Part shown: positions 17,631-40,185 of the stretch, in pieces
How positions within the stretch are numbered: position 1 is the first letter of the stretch
Layout of the letters: every line of letters begins with the position of its first letter
IMG/VR virus record: IMGVR_UViG_2563366881_000002
Location: 1 to 43,852 of that record
Strand: one strand, 5' to 3'
Source of the DNA: a virus
Lineage: Duplodnaviria > Heunggongvirae > Uroviricota > Caudoviricetes
DNA: 43,852 bases
Position numbers and translations under genes: made by a program
The notes under the pieces: model-generated
What the model saw: the letters and a program-made list of their open reading frames with translations, nothing else
Told to the model about the DNA's origin: nothing
Database searches by the model: none

Positions 17631-18164
17631 ATGAACGCAAAAATCAGATACAGCCTGTCGGCTACTGTACTAGTGCTGATTGGTGCAGGCGCGTCTGCTC
17701 CTCAAATACTTGACCAGTTTCTGGACGAAAAAGAAGGTAACCACACAACGGCATACCGTGATGGTTCCGGCATCTGGACCATCTGTCGGGGTGCCACGAT
17801 GGTGGATGGAAAACCCGTTTTTCCCGGTATGAAACTGTCGAAGGAAAAATGCGACCAGGTTAACGCCATCGAACGTGATAAGGCGCTGGCATGGGTGGAA
17901 CGTAATATTAAAGTACCACTGACCGAACCACAAAAAGCGGGTATCGCGTCATTTTGCCCCTATAACATTGGCCCCGGTAAGTGTTTCCCGTCGACGTTTT
18001 ATAAGCGGCTTAATGCCGGTGATCGTAAAGGTGCCTGTGAGTCGATTCGCTGGTGGATTAAGGACGGTGGGCGTGATTGCCGCACACGTTCAAATAACTG
18101 CTACGGACAGGTTATTCGTCGTGACCAGGAAAGCGCATTAGCCTGTTGGGGGATAGATCAGTGA
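17631..18164 (+). CDS. SAR endolysin (T4-lysozyme-like, RrrQ/R21-type)
   Basis: N-terminal Gly/Ala-rich weakly hydrophobic SAR segment (..[16 protein letters not shown]..); catalytic E-x8-D-x5-T (..[16 protein letters not shown]..); 177 aa. Confidence 0.85.
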
Positions 18165-18622
18165 GAAGAGTAGCCGCGATTATCTCCGCTCTGGTTATCT
18201 GCATCATCGTCTGCCTGTCTTGGGCTGTTAATCATTACCGTGATAACGCCATTACCTACAAAGCCCTGCGCGACAAAAATGCCAGAGAACTGAAGCTGGC
18301 GAACGCGGCAATTACTGACATGCAGATGCGTCAGCGTGATGTTGCTGCGCTCGATGCAAAATACACGAAGGAGTTAGCTGATGCGAAAGCTGAAAATGAT
18401 GCTCTGCGTGATGATGTTGCCGCTGGTCGTCGTCGGTTGCACATCAAAGCAGTCTGTCAGTCAGTGCGTGAAGCCACCACCGCCTCCGGCGTGGATAATG
18501 CAGCCTCCCCCCGACTGGCAGACACCGCTGAACGGGATTATTTCACCCTCAGAGAGAGGCTGATCACTATGCAAAAACAACTGGAAGGAACCCAGAAGTA
18601 TATTAATGAGCAGTGCAGATAG
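18161..18622 (+). CDS. Rz: Rz i-spanin
   Basis: 153 aa, N-terminal TM segment then coiled-coil; overlaps endolysin stop; start GTG 18161 with GGGGGA upstream; resembles lambda Rz. Confidence 0.75.
18381..18563 (+). CDS. Rz1: Rz1 o-spanin lipoprotein (embedded in Rz, +1 frame)
   Basis: 60 aa; lipobox ..VVVGC.., proline-rich (..[19 protein letters not shown]..); fully embedded in Rz. Confidence 0.8.
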
Positions 18623-18653
18623 AGTTGCTCATATCGATGGGCAACTCATGCAA

Positions 18654-18947
18654 TTATTTTGAGCAATACACCCGCGCTTCCAGCGGAGTATAAATGCCAA
18701 AAGTGATGAAACCGAGCAATCCATTTACGAATGTTTGCTGGGTTTCTGTTTTAACCACATTTTCTGCACCACCACAAATTTTTGCTGCATCGACAGTTTT
18801 CTTCTGCCCAATTCCCGAAACGAAGAAATGATGGGTGATGGTTTCCTTTGGTGTTACTGCTGTCGGTTTGTTTCCAACAGTAAACGTCTGTTGAGCACAT
18901 CCTGTAATAAGCATTGCCAGAGCGGCAGAAAACAACATTTTTTTCAT
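18654..18947 (-). CDS. bor: Bor lipoprotein (serum-resistance family)
   Basis: MKKMLFSAALAMLITGCAQQTFTV...TPLEARVYCSK near-identical to recalled lambda Bor; 97 aa; lipobox LITGC. Confidence 0.85.
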   Translation of the reverse strand: MKKMLFSAALAMLITGCAQQTFTVGNKPTAVTPKETITHHFFVSGIGQKKTVDAAKICGGAENVVKTETQQTFVNGLLGFITFGIYTPLEARVYCSK

Positions 18948-19427
18948 CTTATTATCCTGCATTGTTAAAAACGGCAGAATCCTATGTGACAACAATTAAA
19001 CGATAGTTAAATGGATTGATGAAAATTAAAACTACACAGGTGAGCTCAGACGATTGGAGGGAGTTGGGGACACTCAGAATCCTGTAGAATGAAATAAACC
19101 GGTCTATCCGTCCATTACCCTTTTAGCTGCGCTGTATCGTCGCCGTATTCCCGCATTAACCATGACCGTAGCCCGACGGGGAATTCCTTCTGCGTGAGTG
19201 TGCGGGAATAATTAAAAACGATGCACACCGGGTTTTTACCGCGTTAATGATTCGCGGATTTATCCCGGTGCGATGGTGGAAGAAACCGGAAGCTGTATTA
19301 CAGAAAGTGCTACTACTGTATCCCGATGCGATGTATGTAATGTGAGTCAGATAATGGCACAGGATGTGGTGATGTGGCAGTCTGGAACACAGGATATATT
19401 GTCAGAATAAGACCCGTAGGAATAAAA

Positions 19428-19754
19428 ATGAAAAGACGCCTTTTACTACTTTTTCTGTTATCTGTCCTAGCAGTGGGATGCTCGCAGCAAAAAGCTGATG
19501 AGCCCCGGCAATTAGTGACGGTGTATCCACGATATCCGGAATATGCTGCAGCAAATTATATCAAGGGGCTGGTTGAGGTTAAGTTCGATATTGGTGCTGA
19601 TGGGACTGTGACACGGATCGTTTTTCTCCGCTCAGAGCCTCATAATTTGTTTCGTGATGAAGTGGTGAAGGCCATGGCGAAATGGCGATTTGAAAAGAAT
19701 CGTCCCTGTCAGGGAGTGAAGAGACAATTTATCTTTACGCCGTCACGTCCCTGA
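19428..19754 (+). CDS. lipoprotein with TonB C-terminal-domain-like fold
   Basis: MKRRLLLLFLLSVLAVGC lipobox; ..YPRYPEYAAANYIKGLVEVKFDIGADGTV..AMAKWRFEK.. resembles the TonB C-terminal domain; SD AGGA upstream. Confidence 0.55.
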   Translation: MKRRLLLLFLLSVLAVGCSQQKADEPRQLVTVYPRYPEYAAANYIKGLVEVKFDIGADGTVTRIVFLRSEPHNLFRDEVVKAMAKWRFEKNRPCQGVKRQFIFTPSRP

Positions 19755-19876
19755 TGCTTCCAGGTAGAGAGGGGCTGGAAGCAGGAGAAAAATGAAAGAG
19801 CCAGCGGTTATATTTTTGTCATGGCTGACGAGGAATGATGGAAGAAGGCGTTGTATGCCACACAACGCCTCACTGT

Positions 19877-20056
19877 TCATTTCTTCTTTTTCTCTAGTGG
19901 AACCCGATGAATAAGAGTTGCACTGGTTTCCGATGAGATGGCGATATACTCGGGCAAAGTATGCTGGCAGTTTTCCAACTGGTCAAAAATACCTGCTCTC
20001 GTCTGTTGCAATGCCTGCAGCATGCGGCGGCAATGCGCCTTGCTTTTGCTAACCAT
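19877..20056 (-). CDS. small hypothetical protein (59 aa)
   Basis: ATG 20056 with strong SD GAGGAAGGA; short basic/helical peptide ending KKKK. Confidence 0.3.
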   Translation of the reverse strand: MVSKSKAHCRRMLQALQQTRAGIFDQLENCQHTLPEYIAISSETSATLIHRVPLEKKKK

Positions 20057-20117
20057 CTTTCCTTCCTCTATCAGTCGCTGCGTGAACTCATCATGGAATA
20101 CCAGGTAAATGCGGATG

Positions 20118-20369
20118 TTATCGGTTTTGGCTACGCAGCATAGTACAAAACGGACAGGTGCATCCCGGGACGGGGGAGGCGTCACATGTCCCTGTGATGG
20201 TTGTTCCGGGTAATGCACTGTGTGGGGCATAAAAATGTCCGATAATTTTACTTTCTACCGCAGTTAGTTGATTCGTTGGTCCTGGTAGCACATTGGGCGA
20301 GGATTTAAATGCCAGGCAACTGAAGGATGATGTTGCAAGGGAGATAGCGAGAATATTTCTGATTTTCAT
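20118..20369 (-). CDS. small secreted Cys-rich protein (83 aa)
   Basis: Signal-peptide-like MKIRNILAISLATSSFSCLA; SD GAGG upstream; Cys-rich C-terminus. Confidence 0.4.
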   Translation of the reverse strand: MKIRNILAISLATSSFSCLAFKSSPNVLPGPTNQLTAVESKIIGHFYAPHSALPGTTITGTCDASPVPGCTCPFCTMLRSQNR

Positions 20370-20518
20370 TTGATGATGCCTCTGTGTGAAATGACGGTAA
20401 ACGACGCACTTGTGCCGGCACATAATAGCAAGCACCATAATAGATCAGATTCGATTCTTGCTGTAAGTGATAATTATTCTCGTTTTTCGGGTCCTTTCCG
20501 GCGATCCAACAGGCTACG

Positions 20519-20530
20519 GGGCGGCGACCT
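20519..20530. other. cos: cosN cohesive-end site (lambda 12-nt overhang GGGCGGCGACCT), cosB follows toward Nu1
   Basis: Exact lambda left-end sequence GGGCGGCGACCTCGCGGGTTTTCGCTATTTATGAAAATTTTCCGG... ~190 bp upstream of Nu1. Confidence 0.85.
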
Positions 20531-20707
20531 CGCGGGTTTTCGCTATTTATGAAAATTTTCCGGTTTAAGGCGTTTCCGTTCTTCTTCGTCATAACTTAAT
20601 GTTTTTATTTAAAATACCCTCTGAAAAGAAAGGAAACGACAGGTGCTGAAAGCGAGCTTTTTGGCCTCTGTCGTTTCCTTTCTCTGTTTTTGTCCGTGGA
20701 ATGAACA

Positions 20708-21227
20708 ATGGAAGTCAACAAAAAGCAGCTGGCTGACATTTTCGGTGCGAGTATCCGTACCATTCAGAACTGGCAGGAACAGGGAATGCCCGTTCTGCGA
20801 GGCGGTGGCAAGGGTAATGAGGTGCTTTATGATTCTGCCGCCGTCATAAAATGGTATGCCGAAAGGGATGCTGAAATTGAGAACGAAAAGCTGCGCCGGG
20901 AAGTTGAAGAACTGCGGCAGGCCAGCGAGACAGATCTCCAGCCAGGGACTATTGAGTACGAACGCCATCGACTTACGCGTGCGCAGGCCGACGCACAGGA
21001 GCTGAAAAATGCCAGAGACTCCGCTGAAGTGGTGGAAACCGCATTCTGTACTTTCGTGCTGTCGCGGATCGCAGGTGAAATTGCCAGTATTCTCGACGGG
21101 ATCCCCCTGTCGGTGCAGCGGCGTTTTCCGGAACTGGAAAACCGACATGTTGATTTCCTGAAACGGGATATCATCAAAGCCATGAACAAAGCAGCCGCGC
21201 TGGATGAACTGATACCGGGGTTGCTGA

Positions 21228-21253
<26 letters not shown>
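20708..21253 (+). CDS. nu1: terminase small subunit Nu1
   Basis: MEVNKKQLADIFGASIRTIQNWQEQGMPVLRGGGKGNEVLYD... matches recalled lambda Nu1 over full length. Confidence 0.95.
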
Positions 21254-24934
<3,681 letters not shown>

Positions 24935-36036: not shown

Positions 36037-39000
36037 ATGGGTAAAGGCAGCAGTAAGGGGCATACCCCGCGCGAAGCGAAGGACAACCTGAAATCATCCC
36101 AGATGCTGAGCGTGATAGACGCCATCAGTGAAGGGCCGGTTGAAGGTCCGGTGGACGGATTAAAAAGTGTGCTGCTGAACAGTACGCCGGTGCTGGACAG
36201 TGAGGGGAATACCAATATCTCCGGTGTCACGGTGGTTTTCCGGGCAGGTGAGCAGGAGCAGACACCGCCGGAGGGATTTGAATCCTCCGGCTCCGAGACG
36301 GTGCTGGGTACGGAAGTGAAGTACGACACGCCGATTACCCGGACCATCACGTCGGCAAACATCGACCGTCTGCGCTTTACCTTCGGTGTGCAGGCACTGG
36401 TGGAAACCACCTCAAAGGGTGACCGGAATCCGTCGGAAGTCCGCCTGCTGGTTCAGATACAGCGTAATGGTGGCTGGGTGACGGAAAAAGATATCACCAT
36501 TAAAGGCAAAACCACCTCGCAGTATCTGGCCTCGGTGGTGGTGGATAACCTGCCGCCGCGCCCGTTTAATATCCGGATGCGCAGGATGACGCCGGACAGC
36601 ACCACAGACCAGCTGCAGAACAAAACGCTCTGGTCGTCATACACCGAAATCATCGATGTGAAACAGTGCTACCCGAACACGGCACTGGTCGGCGTGCAGG
36701 TGGATTCGGAGCAGTTCGGCAGCCAGCAGGTGAGCCGTAATTATCATCTGCGCGGGCGTATTCTGCAGGTGCCGTCGAATTATAACCCGCAGACGCGGCA
36801 ATACAGCGGTATCTGGGACGGAACGTTTAAACCGGCATACAGCAACAACATGGCCTGGTGTCTGTGGGATATGCTGACCCACCCGCGCTACGGCATGGGG
36901 AAACGTCTTGGTGCGGCAGATGTGGATAAATGGGCGCTGTATGTCATCGGCCAGAATTGCGACCAGTCGGTGCCGGACGGCTTTGGCGGCACGGAGCCGC
37001 GCATCGCCTGTAATGCGTACCTGACCACACAGCGCAAGGCCTGGGATGTGCTCAGTGATTTCTGCTCGGCGATGCGCTGTATGCCGGTATGGAACGGGCA
37101 GACGCTGACGTTCGTGCAGGACCGACCGTCGGATAAGGTGTGGACCTATAACCGCAGTAATGTGGTGATGCCGGATGATGGCGCGCCGTTCCGCTACAGC
37201 TTCAGCGCCCTGAAGGACCGCCATAATGCCGTTGAGGTGAACTGGATTGACCCGGATAACGGCTGGGAGACGGCGACAGAGCTTGTGGAGGACACGCAGG
37301 CCATTGCCCGTTACGGTCGTAACGTCACGAAGATGGATGCCTTTGGCTGTACCAGTCGGGGGCAGGCACACCGCGCCGGGCTGTGGCTGATTAAAACAGA
37401 ACTGCTGGAAACGCAGACCGTGGATTTCAGCGTCGGCGCAGAAGGGCTTCGCCATGTACCGGGCGATGTCATTGAAATCTGCGATGATGACTATGCCGGT
37501 ATCAGCACCGGCGGGCGCGTGCTGGCGGTAAACAGCCAGACCCGGACGCTGACGCTCGACCGTGAAATCACGCTGCCATCCTCCGGTACCACGCTGATAA
37601 GCCTGGTTGACGGAAGTGGCAATCCGGTCAGCGTGGAGGTTCAGTCCGTCACCGACGGCGTGAAGGTGAAAGTGAGCCGTGTTCCTGACGGTGTTGCTGA
37701 ATACAGCGTGTGGGGGCTGAAGCTGCCGACGTTGCGCCAGCGCCTGTTCCGCTGCGTGAGTATCCGTGAGAACGACGGCGGCACGTATGCCATCACCGCC
37801 GTGCAGCATGTACCGGAAAAAGAAGCCATCGTGGATAACGGGGCGCACTTTGACGGCGACCTGAGCGGCACGGTGAATGGCGTCACGCCGCCCGCGGTGC
37901 AGCACCTGACCGCAGAAGTCACCGCAGACAGTGGGGAGTATCAGGTACTGGCGCGCTGGGACACGCCGAAGGTGGTGAAGGGGGTGAGCTTTATGCTTCG
38001 CCTGACCGTGGCAGCGGATGACGGCAGTGAGCGGCTGGTCAGCACGGCCCGGACGACGGAAACCACATACCGCTTCACGCAACTGGCGCTGGGGCGGTAC
38101 ACGCTGACAGTCCGGGCGGTAAATGCGTGGGGACAGCAGGGCGATCCGGCGTCGGTATCGTTCCGGATTGCCGCACCGGTAGCACCGTCGCGGATTGAGC
38201 TGACGCCGGGGTATTTTCAGATAACCGCCACGCCGCATCTTGCCGTTTATGACCCGACGGTACAGTTTGAGTTCTGGTTTTCGGAAAAGCGGATTACCGA
38301 TATCAGGCAGGTTGAAACCACAGCGCGCTACCTTGGCACGGGGCTGTACTGGATAGCCGCCAGTATCAATATCAAACCGGGCCATGATTATTACTTTTAT
38401 ATCCGCAGTGTGAACACCGTTGGCAAATCGGCATTCGTGGAGGCCGTCGGTCGGGCGAGCGATGATGCGGAAGGTTACCTGGATTTTTTCAAAGGCGAGA
38501 TAGGGAAAACCCATCTGGCTCAGGAGCTGTGGACGCAGATTGATAACGGTCAGCTTGCGCCTGACCTGGCTGAAATCAGGACGTCCATTACGAATGTCAG
38601 CAATGAAATCACGCAGACCGTCAATAAAAAACTGGAAGACCAGAGTGCGGCAATCCAGCAGATACAGAAAGTTCAGGTTGATACAAATAATAACCTGAAC
38701 AGCATGTGGGCCGTGAAACTGCAGCAGATGAAGGACGGACGCCTTTATATTGCGGGTATCGGAGCCGGTATTGAGAATACGCCAGCAGGTATGCAGAGTC
38801 AGGTGCTTCTGGCTGCTGACCGGATTGCGATGATTAATCCTGCGAATGGCAACACAAAGCCGATGTTTGTTGGTCAGGGCGATCAGATATTCATGAACGA
38901 CGTGTTCCTGAAACGCCTGACGGCTCCGACCATTACCAGCGGCGGTAATCCTCCGGCATTTTCCCTGACACCGGACGGGCGGCTGACGGCGAAAAATGCC

Positions 39001-39516
39001 GATATCAGCGGTAACGTGAATGCGAACTCCGGGACGCTCAACAACGTCACGATTAACGAGAACTGTCGGGTTCTGGGAAAATTGTCCGCCAACCAGATTG
39101 AAGGCGATCTCGTTAAAACAGTGGGCAAAGCTTTCCCCCGGGACTCCCGTGCACCGGAACGGTGGCCATCAGGGACCATCACCGTCAGGGTTTATGACGA
39201 TCAGCCGTTTGACCGGCAGATTGTTATTCCGGCGGTGGCATTCAGCGGCGCTAAACATGAGCGGGAGAATAACGATATTTATTCGTCATGCCGCCTGATA
39301 GTACGGAAAAACGGTGCTGAAATTTATAACCGTACCGCGCTGGATAATACGCTGATTTACAGTGGTGTTATTGATATGCCAGCTGGTCGCGGCCACATGA
39401 CGCTGGAGTTTTCGGTGTCATCATGGCTGGTAAATGACTGGTATCCCACAGCAAGTATCAGCGATTTGCTGGTTGTGGTGATGAAGAAAGCCACCGCAGG
39501 CATCAGTATTCGTTGA
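36037..39516 (+). CDS. J: central tail fibre / host specificity protein J
   Basis: 1159 aa, lambda gpJ-like throughout (27 aa longer than recalled lambda J). Confidence 0.95.
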
Positions 39517-39585: not shown

Positions 39586-40185
39586 ATGCGTAAAGTTTGT
39601 GCAGCCATTTTGTCCGCAGCCATCTGTCTGGCCGTATCCGGTGCGCCTGCATGGGCGTCTGAGCAGCAGGCCACGCTGAGCGCAGGGTATCTTCATGCCC
39701 GTACGAACGCTTCCGGCAGCGATAATCTGAACGGGATTAACGTGAAATACCGTTATGAGTTTACGGACACGCTGGGGCTGATTACGTCATTCAGTTATGC
39801 CAACGCTGAAGATGAGCAAAAAACGCATTACAGCGATACCCGCTGGCATGAGGATTCCGTGCGTAATCGCTGGTTCAGCGTGATGGCGGGGCCGTCTGTG
39901 CGCGTGAATGAATGGTTCAGCGCGTATGCGATGGCGGGTATGGCTTACAGCCGTGTTTCGACTTTCTCCGGGGATTATATCCGCGTAACTGACAACAAGG
40001 GGAAAACGCACGATGTGCTGACCGGAAGTGATGACGGTCGCCACAGCAACACGTCTCTGGCGTGGGGAGCTGGCGTGCAGTTTAACCCGACCGAATCCGT
40101 GGCCGTTGACGTCGCTTATGAAGGCTCCGGCAGCGGTGACTGGCGTACCAACAGTTTCATCGTGGGTGTCGGTTATAAATTCTGA
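39586..40185 (+). CDS. lom: Lom outer-membrane protein (Ail/Lom family beta-barrel)
   Basis: Signal peptide MRKVCAAILSAAICLAVSGAPAWA; C-terminal ..FIVGVGYKF; lambda lom position. Confidence 0.9.
   Translation: MRKVCAAILSAAICLAVSGAPAWASEQQATLSAGYLHARTNASGSDNLNGINVKYRYEFTDTLGLITSFSYANAEDEQKTHYSDTRWHEDSVRNRWFSVMAGPSVRVNEWFSAYAMAGMAYSRVSTFSGDYIRVTDNKGKTHDVLTGSDDGRHSNTSLAWGAGVQFNPTESVAVDVAYEGSGSGDWRTNSFIVGVGYKF

Follow-up and report, generated by a model that had tools for sequence, protein, structure and literature searches.

The analysed window, a 43,852-nucleotide stretch of viral DNA (Caudoviricetes; IMG/VR record IMGVR_UViG_2563366881_000002, positions 1 to 43,852), carries a lambdoid prophage gene whose product is a genuine TonB C-terminal domain (TonB_C) placed behind a lipoprotein signal peptide, a protein that may, as a tentative proposal, act as a decoy for the TonB boxes of outer-membrane transporters. 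The gene lies on the plus strand at positions 19428-19754, where the list of open reading frames (ORFs) and the sequence itself gave an intact frame with an ATG start, 108 codons, and a stop codon. An earlier interpretation made from the letters and translated frames of this DNA, hereafter the sequence-only reading, had described a 108-amino-acid (aa) lipoprotein with the lipobox LAVGC; the ORF proved exact, and the lipobox fits a PROSITE-type pattern. Within a known domain family, the lipoprotein represents a new architectural variant, composed of the following elements:

19428-19754, plus strand: ORF of the TonB_C-only lipoprotein (ORF list; protein identical to CPT_21_73 of phage 21)
19418-19421, plus strand: ribosome-binding site AGGA, 6 nt upstream of the ATG (sequence; the phage 21 ribosome-binding site is annotated at the matching place)
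19428-19481, plus strand: lipoprotein signal peptide, residues 1-18, with lipobox LAVGC (passes a PROSITE-type lipobox regular expression)
19482-19502, plus strand: short tether SQQKADE, residues 19-25 (low confidence in AlphaFold2, AF2)
19503-19736, plus strand: TonB C-terminal domain, residues 26-103 (Pfam, NCBIfam, and PDB sequence matches; AF2 with Foldseek)

The N-terminus of the protein, MKRRLLLLFLLSVLAVGC followed by SQQ, is composed of a basic n-region, a hydrophobic core, and the lipobox with Cys18, with a serine at position +2. Cys18 is the predicted lipidation site, and sorting to the outer membrane is predicted because position +2 is occupied by Ser and not by Asp; according to the established +2 rule, lipoproteins without Asp at this position go to the outer membrane. 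Only seven residues (SQQKADE) separate Cys18 from the TonB_C domain in both the sequence and the model, and the mature protein of 91 aa consists of this tether and one TonB C-terminal domain. The TonB-type membrane anchor and the proline-rich spacer are missing, and the N-terminus is a cleavable lipoprotein signal.

The TonB C-terminal domain: sequence and predicted fold

The domain was recognized by profile and sequence searches alike. The Pfam model PF03544 (TonB_C) matched with 49.2 bits against a cutoff of 24.6 (E=7e-13) and TIGR01352 with 47.4 bits against a cutoff of 27.1; the full-length TonB equivalog models reached 45-69 bits against cutoffs of 265-448 and matched with their C-terminal part only. 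A phmmer search against PDB sequences retrieved the E. coli TonB entries 1u07, 1xx3, 2gsk, and 2grx at E ~1e-14, aligning residues 24-103 of the lipoprotein with TonB 151-230, and the identity between the lipoprotein domain and E. coli TonB 153-233 was ~40%. Residues P34, Y36, P37, F53, F75, W86, and F103 align with TonB P161, Y163, P164, F180, F202, W213, and F230, respectively; the PxYP motif and the aromatic core of TonB are retained, with Y215 replaced by F.

The structural comparison used an AF2 model built from a 36-sequence alignment, an earlier run with 8 close sequences having given a predicted local distance difference test (pLDDT) score of 62 and weak Foldseek scores. The model used had a mean pLDDT of 86.7, with values > 96 over residues 30-100 and < 50 at residues 16-21, order beginning at approximately residue 26. 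The predicted elements comprise a strand at 28-30, a helix at 38-42, strands at 47-55 and 61-70, a helix at 76-83, and a strand at 94-103, the last of which is the equivalent of TonB beta3, the strand that pairs with the TonB box; this edge strand is intact in the prediction. In the Foldseek search against the PDB, the best 11 matches were all C-terminal domains of TonB or of the TonB homologue FusB. Specifically, the BtuB-bound TonB chain 2gsk_B gave a template modelling (TM) score of 0.92 with a root-mean-square deviation (rmsd) of 1.0 Å, the FhuA-bound TonB chain 2grx_C a TM score of 0.92 with an rmsd of 0.9 Å, and 1u07 a TM score of 0.90, the ranges over these three structures being 0.90-0.92 for TM and 0.9-1.6 Å for rmsd. 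The likeness to the TonB C-terminal domain suspected in the sequence-only reading was thus confirmed by the Pfam score of 49.2 bits and by a model at TM 0.92 to receptor-bound TonB, and the structural comparison it had put forward as a check, in which a lack of similarity would have spoken against it, came out positive (Foldseek TM 0.90-0.92).

The lipoprotein therefore shares with the E. coli TonB C-terminal domain (2GSK, 2GRX, 1U07, 1XX3) the domain family, the fold, the PxYP motif, the aromatic core, and beta3. In contrast to TonB, it has neither the membrane anchor nor the spacer, and hence no link to ExbB/ExbD, its lipid anchor is predicted to sit in the opposite membrane, and its chain stops five residues past beta3 (TPSRP).

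Distribution, selection, and conserved position of the TonB_C-only family

Public records already name the gene, without giving it a function, so that the annotation itself is not new. Phage 21 carries an identical protein, CPT_21_73, labelled 'TonB C-terminal domain protein', and DNA that is 98.8-99.1% identical was found in phages 21, ev017, Perceval, PhiR47_2, PhiR57_1, and PhiR63_2, under labels that vary between 'Partial tonB-like membrane protein encoded within prophage CP-933N' and 'TonB fragment'. Among complete E. coli genomes, 1225 of 5426 (~23%) carry the gene, annotated as 'TonB family protein', and clinical and avian pathogenic strains are frequent among these matches. In addition to these near-identical copies, E. 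coli phages bear variants with protein identities of 85%, about 70%, and 67%, each of which has a lipobox, together with some truncated copies.

Labels such as 'Partial tonB-like membrane protein' and 'TonB fragment', as well as the truncated copies, would suit a decaying and functionless fragment of a captured tonB, and several observations speak against this. Compared with the 72%-identical variant of phage JLK-2012, the gene showed a nucleotide identity of 73%, with proportions of synonymous (pS) and nonsynonymous (pN) differences of 0.65 and 0.16 and a nonsynonymous-to-synonymous rate ratio (dN/dS) of 0.12; with synonymous sites nearly saturated, these values point to a TonB_C-only gene under purifying selection. 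Among the 1225 gene-carrying E. coli genomes, 1190 have the full-length ORF at an identity of 99% or higher, and the gene has gained a lipoprotein signal peptide that is conserved. Moreover, an exhaustive HMMER search retrieved short proteins of 107-133 aa from Salmonella, Klebsiella, Gibbsiella, Pantoea, Erwinia, Rahnella, and Serratia that aligned from the signal peptide to the end at 31-46% identity. Within this TonB_C-only family, the domains are 33-63% identical between genera, and they share 30-46% identity with true enterobacterial TonB domains (40-41% for the protein of this prophage), whereas the true TonB domains form a cluster of their own, with 57-83% identity among themselves. Consequently, the gene belongs to an old clade of TonB_C-only envelope proteins of Enterobacterales and is not a broken tonB; the selection and phylogenetic data effectively refute the tonB-fragment explanation, to which we assign almost no probability.

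The position of the gene is conserved along with its sequence. In every phage locus inspected, whether from E. coli, Salmonella, Klebsiella, Rahnella, or unassigned viral contigs, it stands after the lysis genes and ahead of the terminase, so that the same slot is occupied in at least four genera at 32-72% identity, and a lipobox was present in all of the phage-borne members checked, with position +2 occupied by S, T, or A. For example, Rahnella prophages show the order holin, holin, GH19 endolysin, Rz, a 74-aa ORF, TonB_C, small terminase, and large terminase. In Klebsiella phage ST13-OXA48phi12.4, in JLK-2012, and in another E. coli variant, the TonB_C gene likewise lies on the same strand with lysis genes before it and the terminase after it, and the types of endolysin and terminase vary among the three. 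In IMG/VR, 15 viral contigs carried relatives of the Salmonella type, 9 of them at 81-97% identity, and 24 carried the Klebsiella type; the order lysis-TonB_C-terminase was found in all seven IMG/VR contigs inspected (7/7).

Relatives with a different architecture were also recorded. Many of the best distant matches were long proteins (~350-1300 aa; P0036, P0043, P0047, and others) with 3-6 separate domain matches, which appear to be tandem-repeat TonB_C proteins. Several short TonB_C-only proteins (P0085, P0120, P0041, P0071) have a C-terminal extension ending in a motif like G-(V/L)-P-(F/Y)-R, and the phage-borne E. coli protein has no such extension. In Serratia ureilytica (L006/L007, 6001-8510), a gene for a periplasmic TonB_C-only protein and an immunity gene of the colicin E1 type are arranged head-to-tail, and the former faces the colicin, a pore-forming protein of 575 aa whose N-terminus bears the TonB-box-like DSMTV. 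This adjacency was considered as support for a decoy and rejected, since other Serratia genomes have this TonB_C gene at the same chromosomal site but carry a SIR2 gene or other DNA in the place of the colicin; the colicin belongs to a variable island next to a TonB_C gene that stays in place, and not to an operon with it, and is therefore not counted as evidence.

A motor-less TonB decoy as the proposed function

We tentatively propose that the lipoprotein acts as a TonB head tethered to the outer membrane, which would occupy the TonB boxes of transporters and thereby block TonB-dependent colicins, microcins, and phages; we place this proposal, the best supported of those considered, somewhat short of an even chance. 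The exposed beta3 edge strand would pair with the TonB boxes in a TonB-like manner. Lacking any coupling to ExbB/ExbD, the lipoprotein could not pull the plug, and with no such link and no transmission of force, the bound lipoprotein would compete with the scarce true TonB and keep the transporters non-energised. The expected result is a cell that tolerates group B colicins (B, D, Ia, Ib, M) as well as TonB-dependent microcins and albomycin and resists the TonB-requiring phages T1 and phi80, at some cost in siderophore and vitamin B12 uptake, while the TonB-independent phages T5, BF23, and lambda, and the Tol-dependent colicins, should be unaffected. The sequence-only reading had listed T5 among the TonB-dependent test phages, which does not hold, as T5 is TonB-independent and a pure decoy should not stop it.

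A receptor-blocking function is plausible because of the way in which beta3 binds, the inhibition described for periplasmic TonB domains, and the precedent of Llp. The beta3 strand of TonB pairs with the transporter TonB box by beta-augmentation (PMC11658791). PMC9841981 states, citing Howard, Herrmann, Stratilo, and Braun 2001, that iron import through TonB-dependent transporters is inhibited when the periplasmic domain of TonB is overproduced and, citing Tuckman 1992, that a TonB-box pentapeptide lowers colicin killing and phi80 infection. As in the engineered periplasmic TonB fragments of Howard et al. 2001, as cited in PMC9841981, a TonB domain would here be placed in the periplasm uncoupled from its motor, and such fragments provide a mechanistic precedent for a dominant-negative effect; in contrast, they are soluble, overproduced laboratory constructs, whereas the present protein is encoded by a natural phage gene, carries a lipid anchor, and belongs to its own sequence family. 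The Llp protein of T5 is a periplasmic outer-membrane lipoprotein that binds and inactivates FhuA from the periplasmic face (PMC9586334), and both Llp and Cor act, or are predicted to act, periplasmically on TonB-dependent transporters (PMC9586334; bioRxiv 10.64898/2026.03.26.714494).

Like Llp and Cor, the TonB_C protein is a small phage lipoprotein, of the outer membrane by prediction and 91 aa long in its mature form. The analogy to Cor and Llp drawn in the sequence-only reading finds no counterpart in either sequence or position: Pfam at E <= 1 gave TonB_C only, with no relation to Cor or Llp, no Llp or Cor structure was among the 50 Foldseek matches listed, and the gene follows the lysis genes and is not beside the tail-tip gene. 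Both Llp and Cor have FhuA as their specific target, jam the plug and refold the outer loops rather than binding the TonB box, and are encoded next to receptor-binding or tail genes, whereas the TonB_C lipoprotein, encoded near the lysis genes, would be generic for all TonB boxes. A wider claim is conceivable, namely that among the temperate phages of Enterobacterales there is a whole family of motor-less TonB heads tethered to the outer membrane and acting as generic dominant-negative decoys for every TonB box in the cell, which would be a new class of lysogenic-conversion or exclusion factor; we regard it as doubtful.

A number of observations weigh against the decoy proposal. The predicted binding of TonB boxes is derived from conservation of the fold only, and three positions linked to specific contacts of TonB in crystal and cross-linking papers differ in the lipoprotein, with Q160 corresponding to Y33, R158 to T31, and R166 to Y39. 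The helix-1 face formed by Y39 and N43 is conserved within the lipoprotein's own family and could mean that the partner is another one. Relatives in Erwinia, Serratia, and Pantoea lie in non-phage chromosomal contexts, which suggests that the TonB_C domain is also used outside phage competition. Regarding expression, the gene is on the strand of the late transcript, so that, from what is known of lambdoid phages, it would be transcribed at least late, after Q antitermination; a consensus scan of the upstream plus strand gave no sigma-70 match of at least 9/12 bases, a four-way upstream alignment showed as conserved only a GATAAT at 19350-19355 without a usable -35 element, and inspection of the upstream region by eye for Fur-box or CRP-like sites yielded nothing convincing. 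With no sigma-70 promoter seen, the gene may be expressed only late in lytic growth, in which case exclusion may be worth less. A constitutive blockade of TonB, in turn, would starve the host of iron. Finally, a full-text literature search found no paper on this protein or its function, and PADLOC had no model for, and no match to, the TonB_C lipoprotein.

A different target within the same system was also considered, namely that the protein poisons the Ton machine itself, through TonB or ExbD, and not the receptors, with a similar outcome in that TonB-dependent uptake would be lost. The ~40% identity to the host TonB domain and the retained aromatic core residues are compatible with such an interaction, as is the crystallisation of TonB C-terminal fragments as dimers, 1u07 containing two chains. 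The physiological role of these dimers is disputed, however, and the 7-residue outer-membrane tether keeps the domain far from ExbD; we hold this explanation to be very unlikely.

Prophage surroundings and the question of a lysis function

The genes surrounding the lipoprotein gene are those of a lambdoid prophage, including endolysin, Rz/Rz1, Bor, Nu1, the large terminase, J, and Lom, in agreement with the prophage setting given by the sequence-only reading. Its placement of the gene near cos was equally accurate, the cohesive end GGGCGGCGACCT being found at 20519-20530, with 765 nt between the stop codon of the TonB_C gene and cosN. The relevant elements are:

17631-18164: endolysin
18146-18622, plus strand: Rz i-spanin with the embedded Rz1 o-spanin at 18381-18563 (ORFs; phage 21 annotation of the 98.7%-identical module)
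18654-18995, minus strand: bor/iss lipoprotein gene, the divergent neighbour (Pfam Lambda_Bor, E=1e-30; RefSeq 'Iss')
19128-19266, plus strand: conserved lambdoid backbone block upstream of the insertion (~95% identical to 4C10, 4A7, and mEp460)
19267-20487, no strand assigned: 1.2-kb moron-like insertion with the TonB_C gene (blastn against the right end of Lambda_4C10)
20519-20530, plus strand: cosN, lambda-type cohesive end GGGCGGCGACCT (20518 corresponds to the right end of the phage 21 genome)
20708-21253: Nu1
21228-23153: large terminase
36037-39516: J
39586-40185: lom

In PHROGs, the protein belongs to phrog_1267 (full-length match, E=5e-43), which is labelled 'Rz-like spanin' and filed under the category 'lysis'. 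That the lipoprotein is an outer-membrane spanin subunit, as the full-length phrog_1267 match and its prediction as an outer-membrane lipoprotein encoded after Rz might suggest, is not credible, because a canonical Rz/Rz1 pair is present and the protein is a globular TonB_C domain. The Rz1 embedded in Rz at 18381-18563 is a typical proline-rich o-spanin of 60 aa with a PPPPP motif, and a 91-aa globular TonB_C domain is unlike the o-spanins. The label is probably wrong and was probably carried over from the position of the gene; we see practically no likelihood in a spanin function.

Less easily set aside is a role as an accessory of the lysis module, in which the protein would be made from the Q-antiterminated late transcript only and would act on the envelope around the time of lysis and not in lysogenic conversion; it might, for instance, bind peptidoglycan or transporters and aid the disruption of the outer membrane, or shut down TonB traffic in the dying cell. 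Consistent with this, in the phage loci inspected the gene comes directly after endolysin and Rz/Rz1 on the same strand, often with gaps of < 250 nt, no promoter of its own was detected, and phrog_1267 (E=5e-43) stands under 'lysis'. On the other hand, the phage is already equipped with holin, endolysin, and a full Rz/Rz1 spanin pair, and none of the known steps of lysis requires a TonB domain. The space after the lysis cassette also holds bor, both here and in lambda, and in this prophage the opposite-strand bor lies between Rz and the TonB_C gene. Furthermore, the insertion that carries the gene is missing from related phages with normal lysis. Taken together, we judge a lysis accessory unlikely, with some probability left to it.

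The insertion spans 19267-20487 and was recognized as such because its flanks, 19128-19266 and 20488-20522, are only ~95 nt apart in Lambda_4C10. In the JLK-2012 variant, homology ends exactly at the TonB_C stop codon. Carried in a 1.2-kb insertion that is absent from related phages, and lying beside bor, the gene resembles the lambda morons Bor/Iss and Lom, envelope proteins that are dispensable additions and for which roles in serum resistance and adhesion have been shown or proposed; a classical moron is defined by its own promoter. A further explanation is a moron that serves host fitness or virulence and has nothing to do with TonB competition, for example an envelope-stabilising or host-interaction lipoprotein reusing the TonB_C fold. 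Such a role would be in keeping with the adjoining bor/iss, with lom in the same prophage, with the frequency of the gene in clinical and avian pathogenic strains among the matches, and with the family-specific helix-1 residues. It would also suit the chromosomal relatives in non-phage contexts in Erwinia, Serratia, and Pantoea, which share with the phage lipoprotein a signal peptide followed by one TonB_C domain at 32-40% identity; several of these uncharacterised relatives, including those of Erwinia and Serratia, differ from it in having ordinary signal peptides. Against this, there is no evidence for surface exposure, and the documented activity of the fold is limited to the periplasmic binding of TonB boxes or partner proteins. 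We regard a virulence moron as distinctly unlikely.

The relation of the gene to tail specificity could be examined within the same prophage. The Rz-bor-TonB_C-cos module (18167-20518) matches the right end of phage 21 at 98.7% identity. The tip of J, by contrast, is only 71% identical to that of phage 21 and 96% identical to the 'PPompW' prophages; J itself is located 16 kb from the TonB_C gene. A mosaic joint is thus present within one prophage between this module and J, which argues that the gene is not bound to one tail specificity.

Implications

Iron and vitamin B12 enter the cell through the Ton system, as do many bacteriocins, several phages, and siderophore-conjugated antibiotics of the cefiderocol type, and the system is pursued as a drug target. 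Should the decoy proposal be true, a single protein would give the host tolerance to all TonB-dependent colicins, microcins, sideromycin antibiotics, and phages, and a natural inhibitor of the Ton system would be present in ~23% of complete E. coli genomes as well as in prophages of Salmonella and Klebsiella. Strain competition in the gut would be affected via colicin and microcin tolerance, as would the choice of phages usable against carrier strains, and susceptibility to Trojan-horse antibiotics might change. For the TonB field, the protein would provide an evolved tool that separates TonB-box binding from energy transduction. If the role lies instead in lysis or elsewhere, it would be the first function for the widespread small TonB_C-only proteins.

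Further features around the gene

The backbone block upstream of the insertion (19128-19266), situated between lysis/bor and cos, is non-coding, contains two predicted hairpins (z = -2.3), and, in the comparison of the window with JLK-2012, was more conserved than the adjacent coding sequence. It was considered as a private regulatory region of the TonB_C gene and rejected, as it occurs in 432 phage records, most of them without the gene, versus 15 records for the TonB_C gene. An Rfam scan of 18900-20800 matched no RNA family. The small flanking ORFs (45, 40, 60, 117, and 106 aa) had no Pfam match, and the 45-aa ORF upstream seems unconserved in the variants, judging from indels in the alignments, in which the reading frames were not checked directly.

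Starting 2 nt past the stop codon of the TonB_C gene, GCTTCCAG...CTGGAAGC, a perfect inverted repeat of 8 bp separated by an 11-nt loop, is located at 19756-19782 on the plus strand; this hairpin is not a standard intrinsic terminator because no U tract follows it. Additionally, the insertion contains two overlapping ORFs on the minus strand, one of 117 aa at 19877-20230 and one of 106 aa at 20118-20438, which had no Pfam match and are annotated neither in phage 21 nor in RefSeq, and the 106-aa ORF includes an internal signal-peptide-like segment, MKIRNILAISLATSSFSCLAF.

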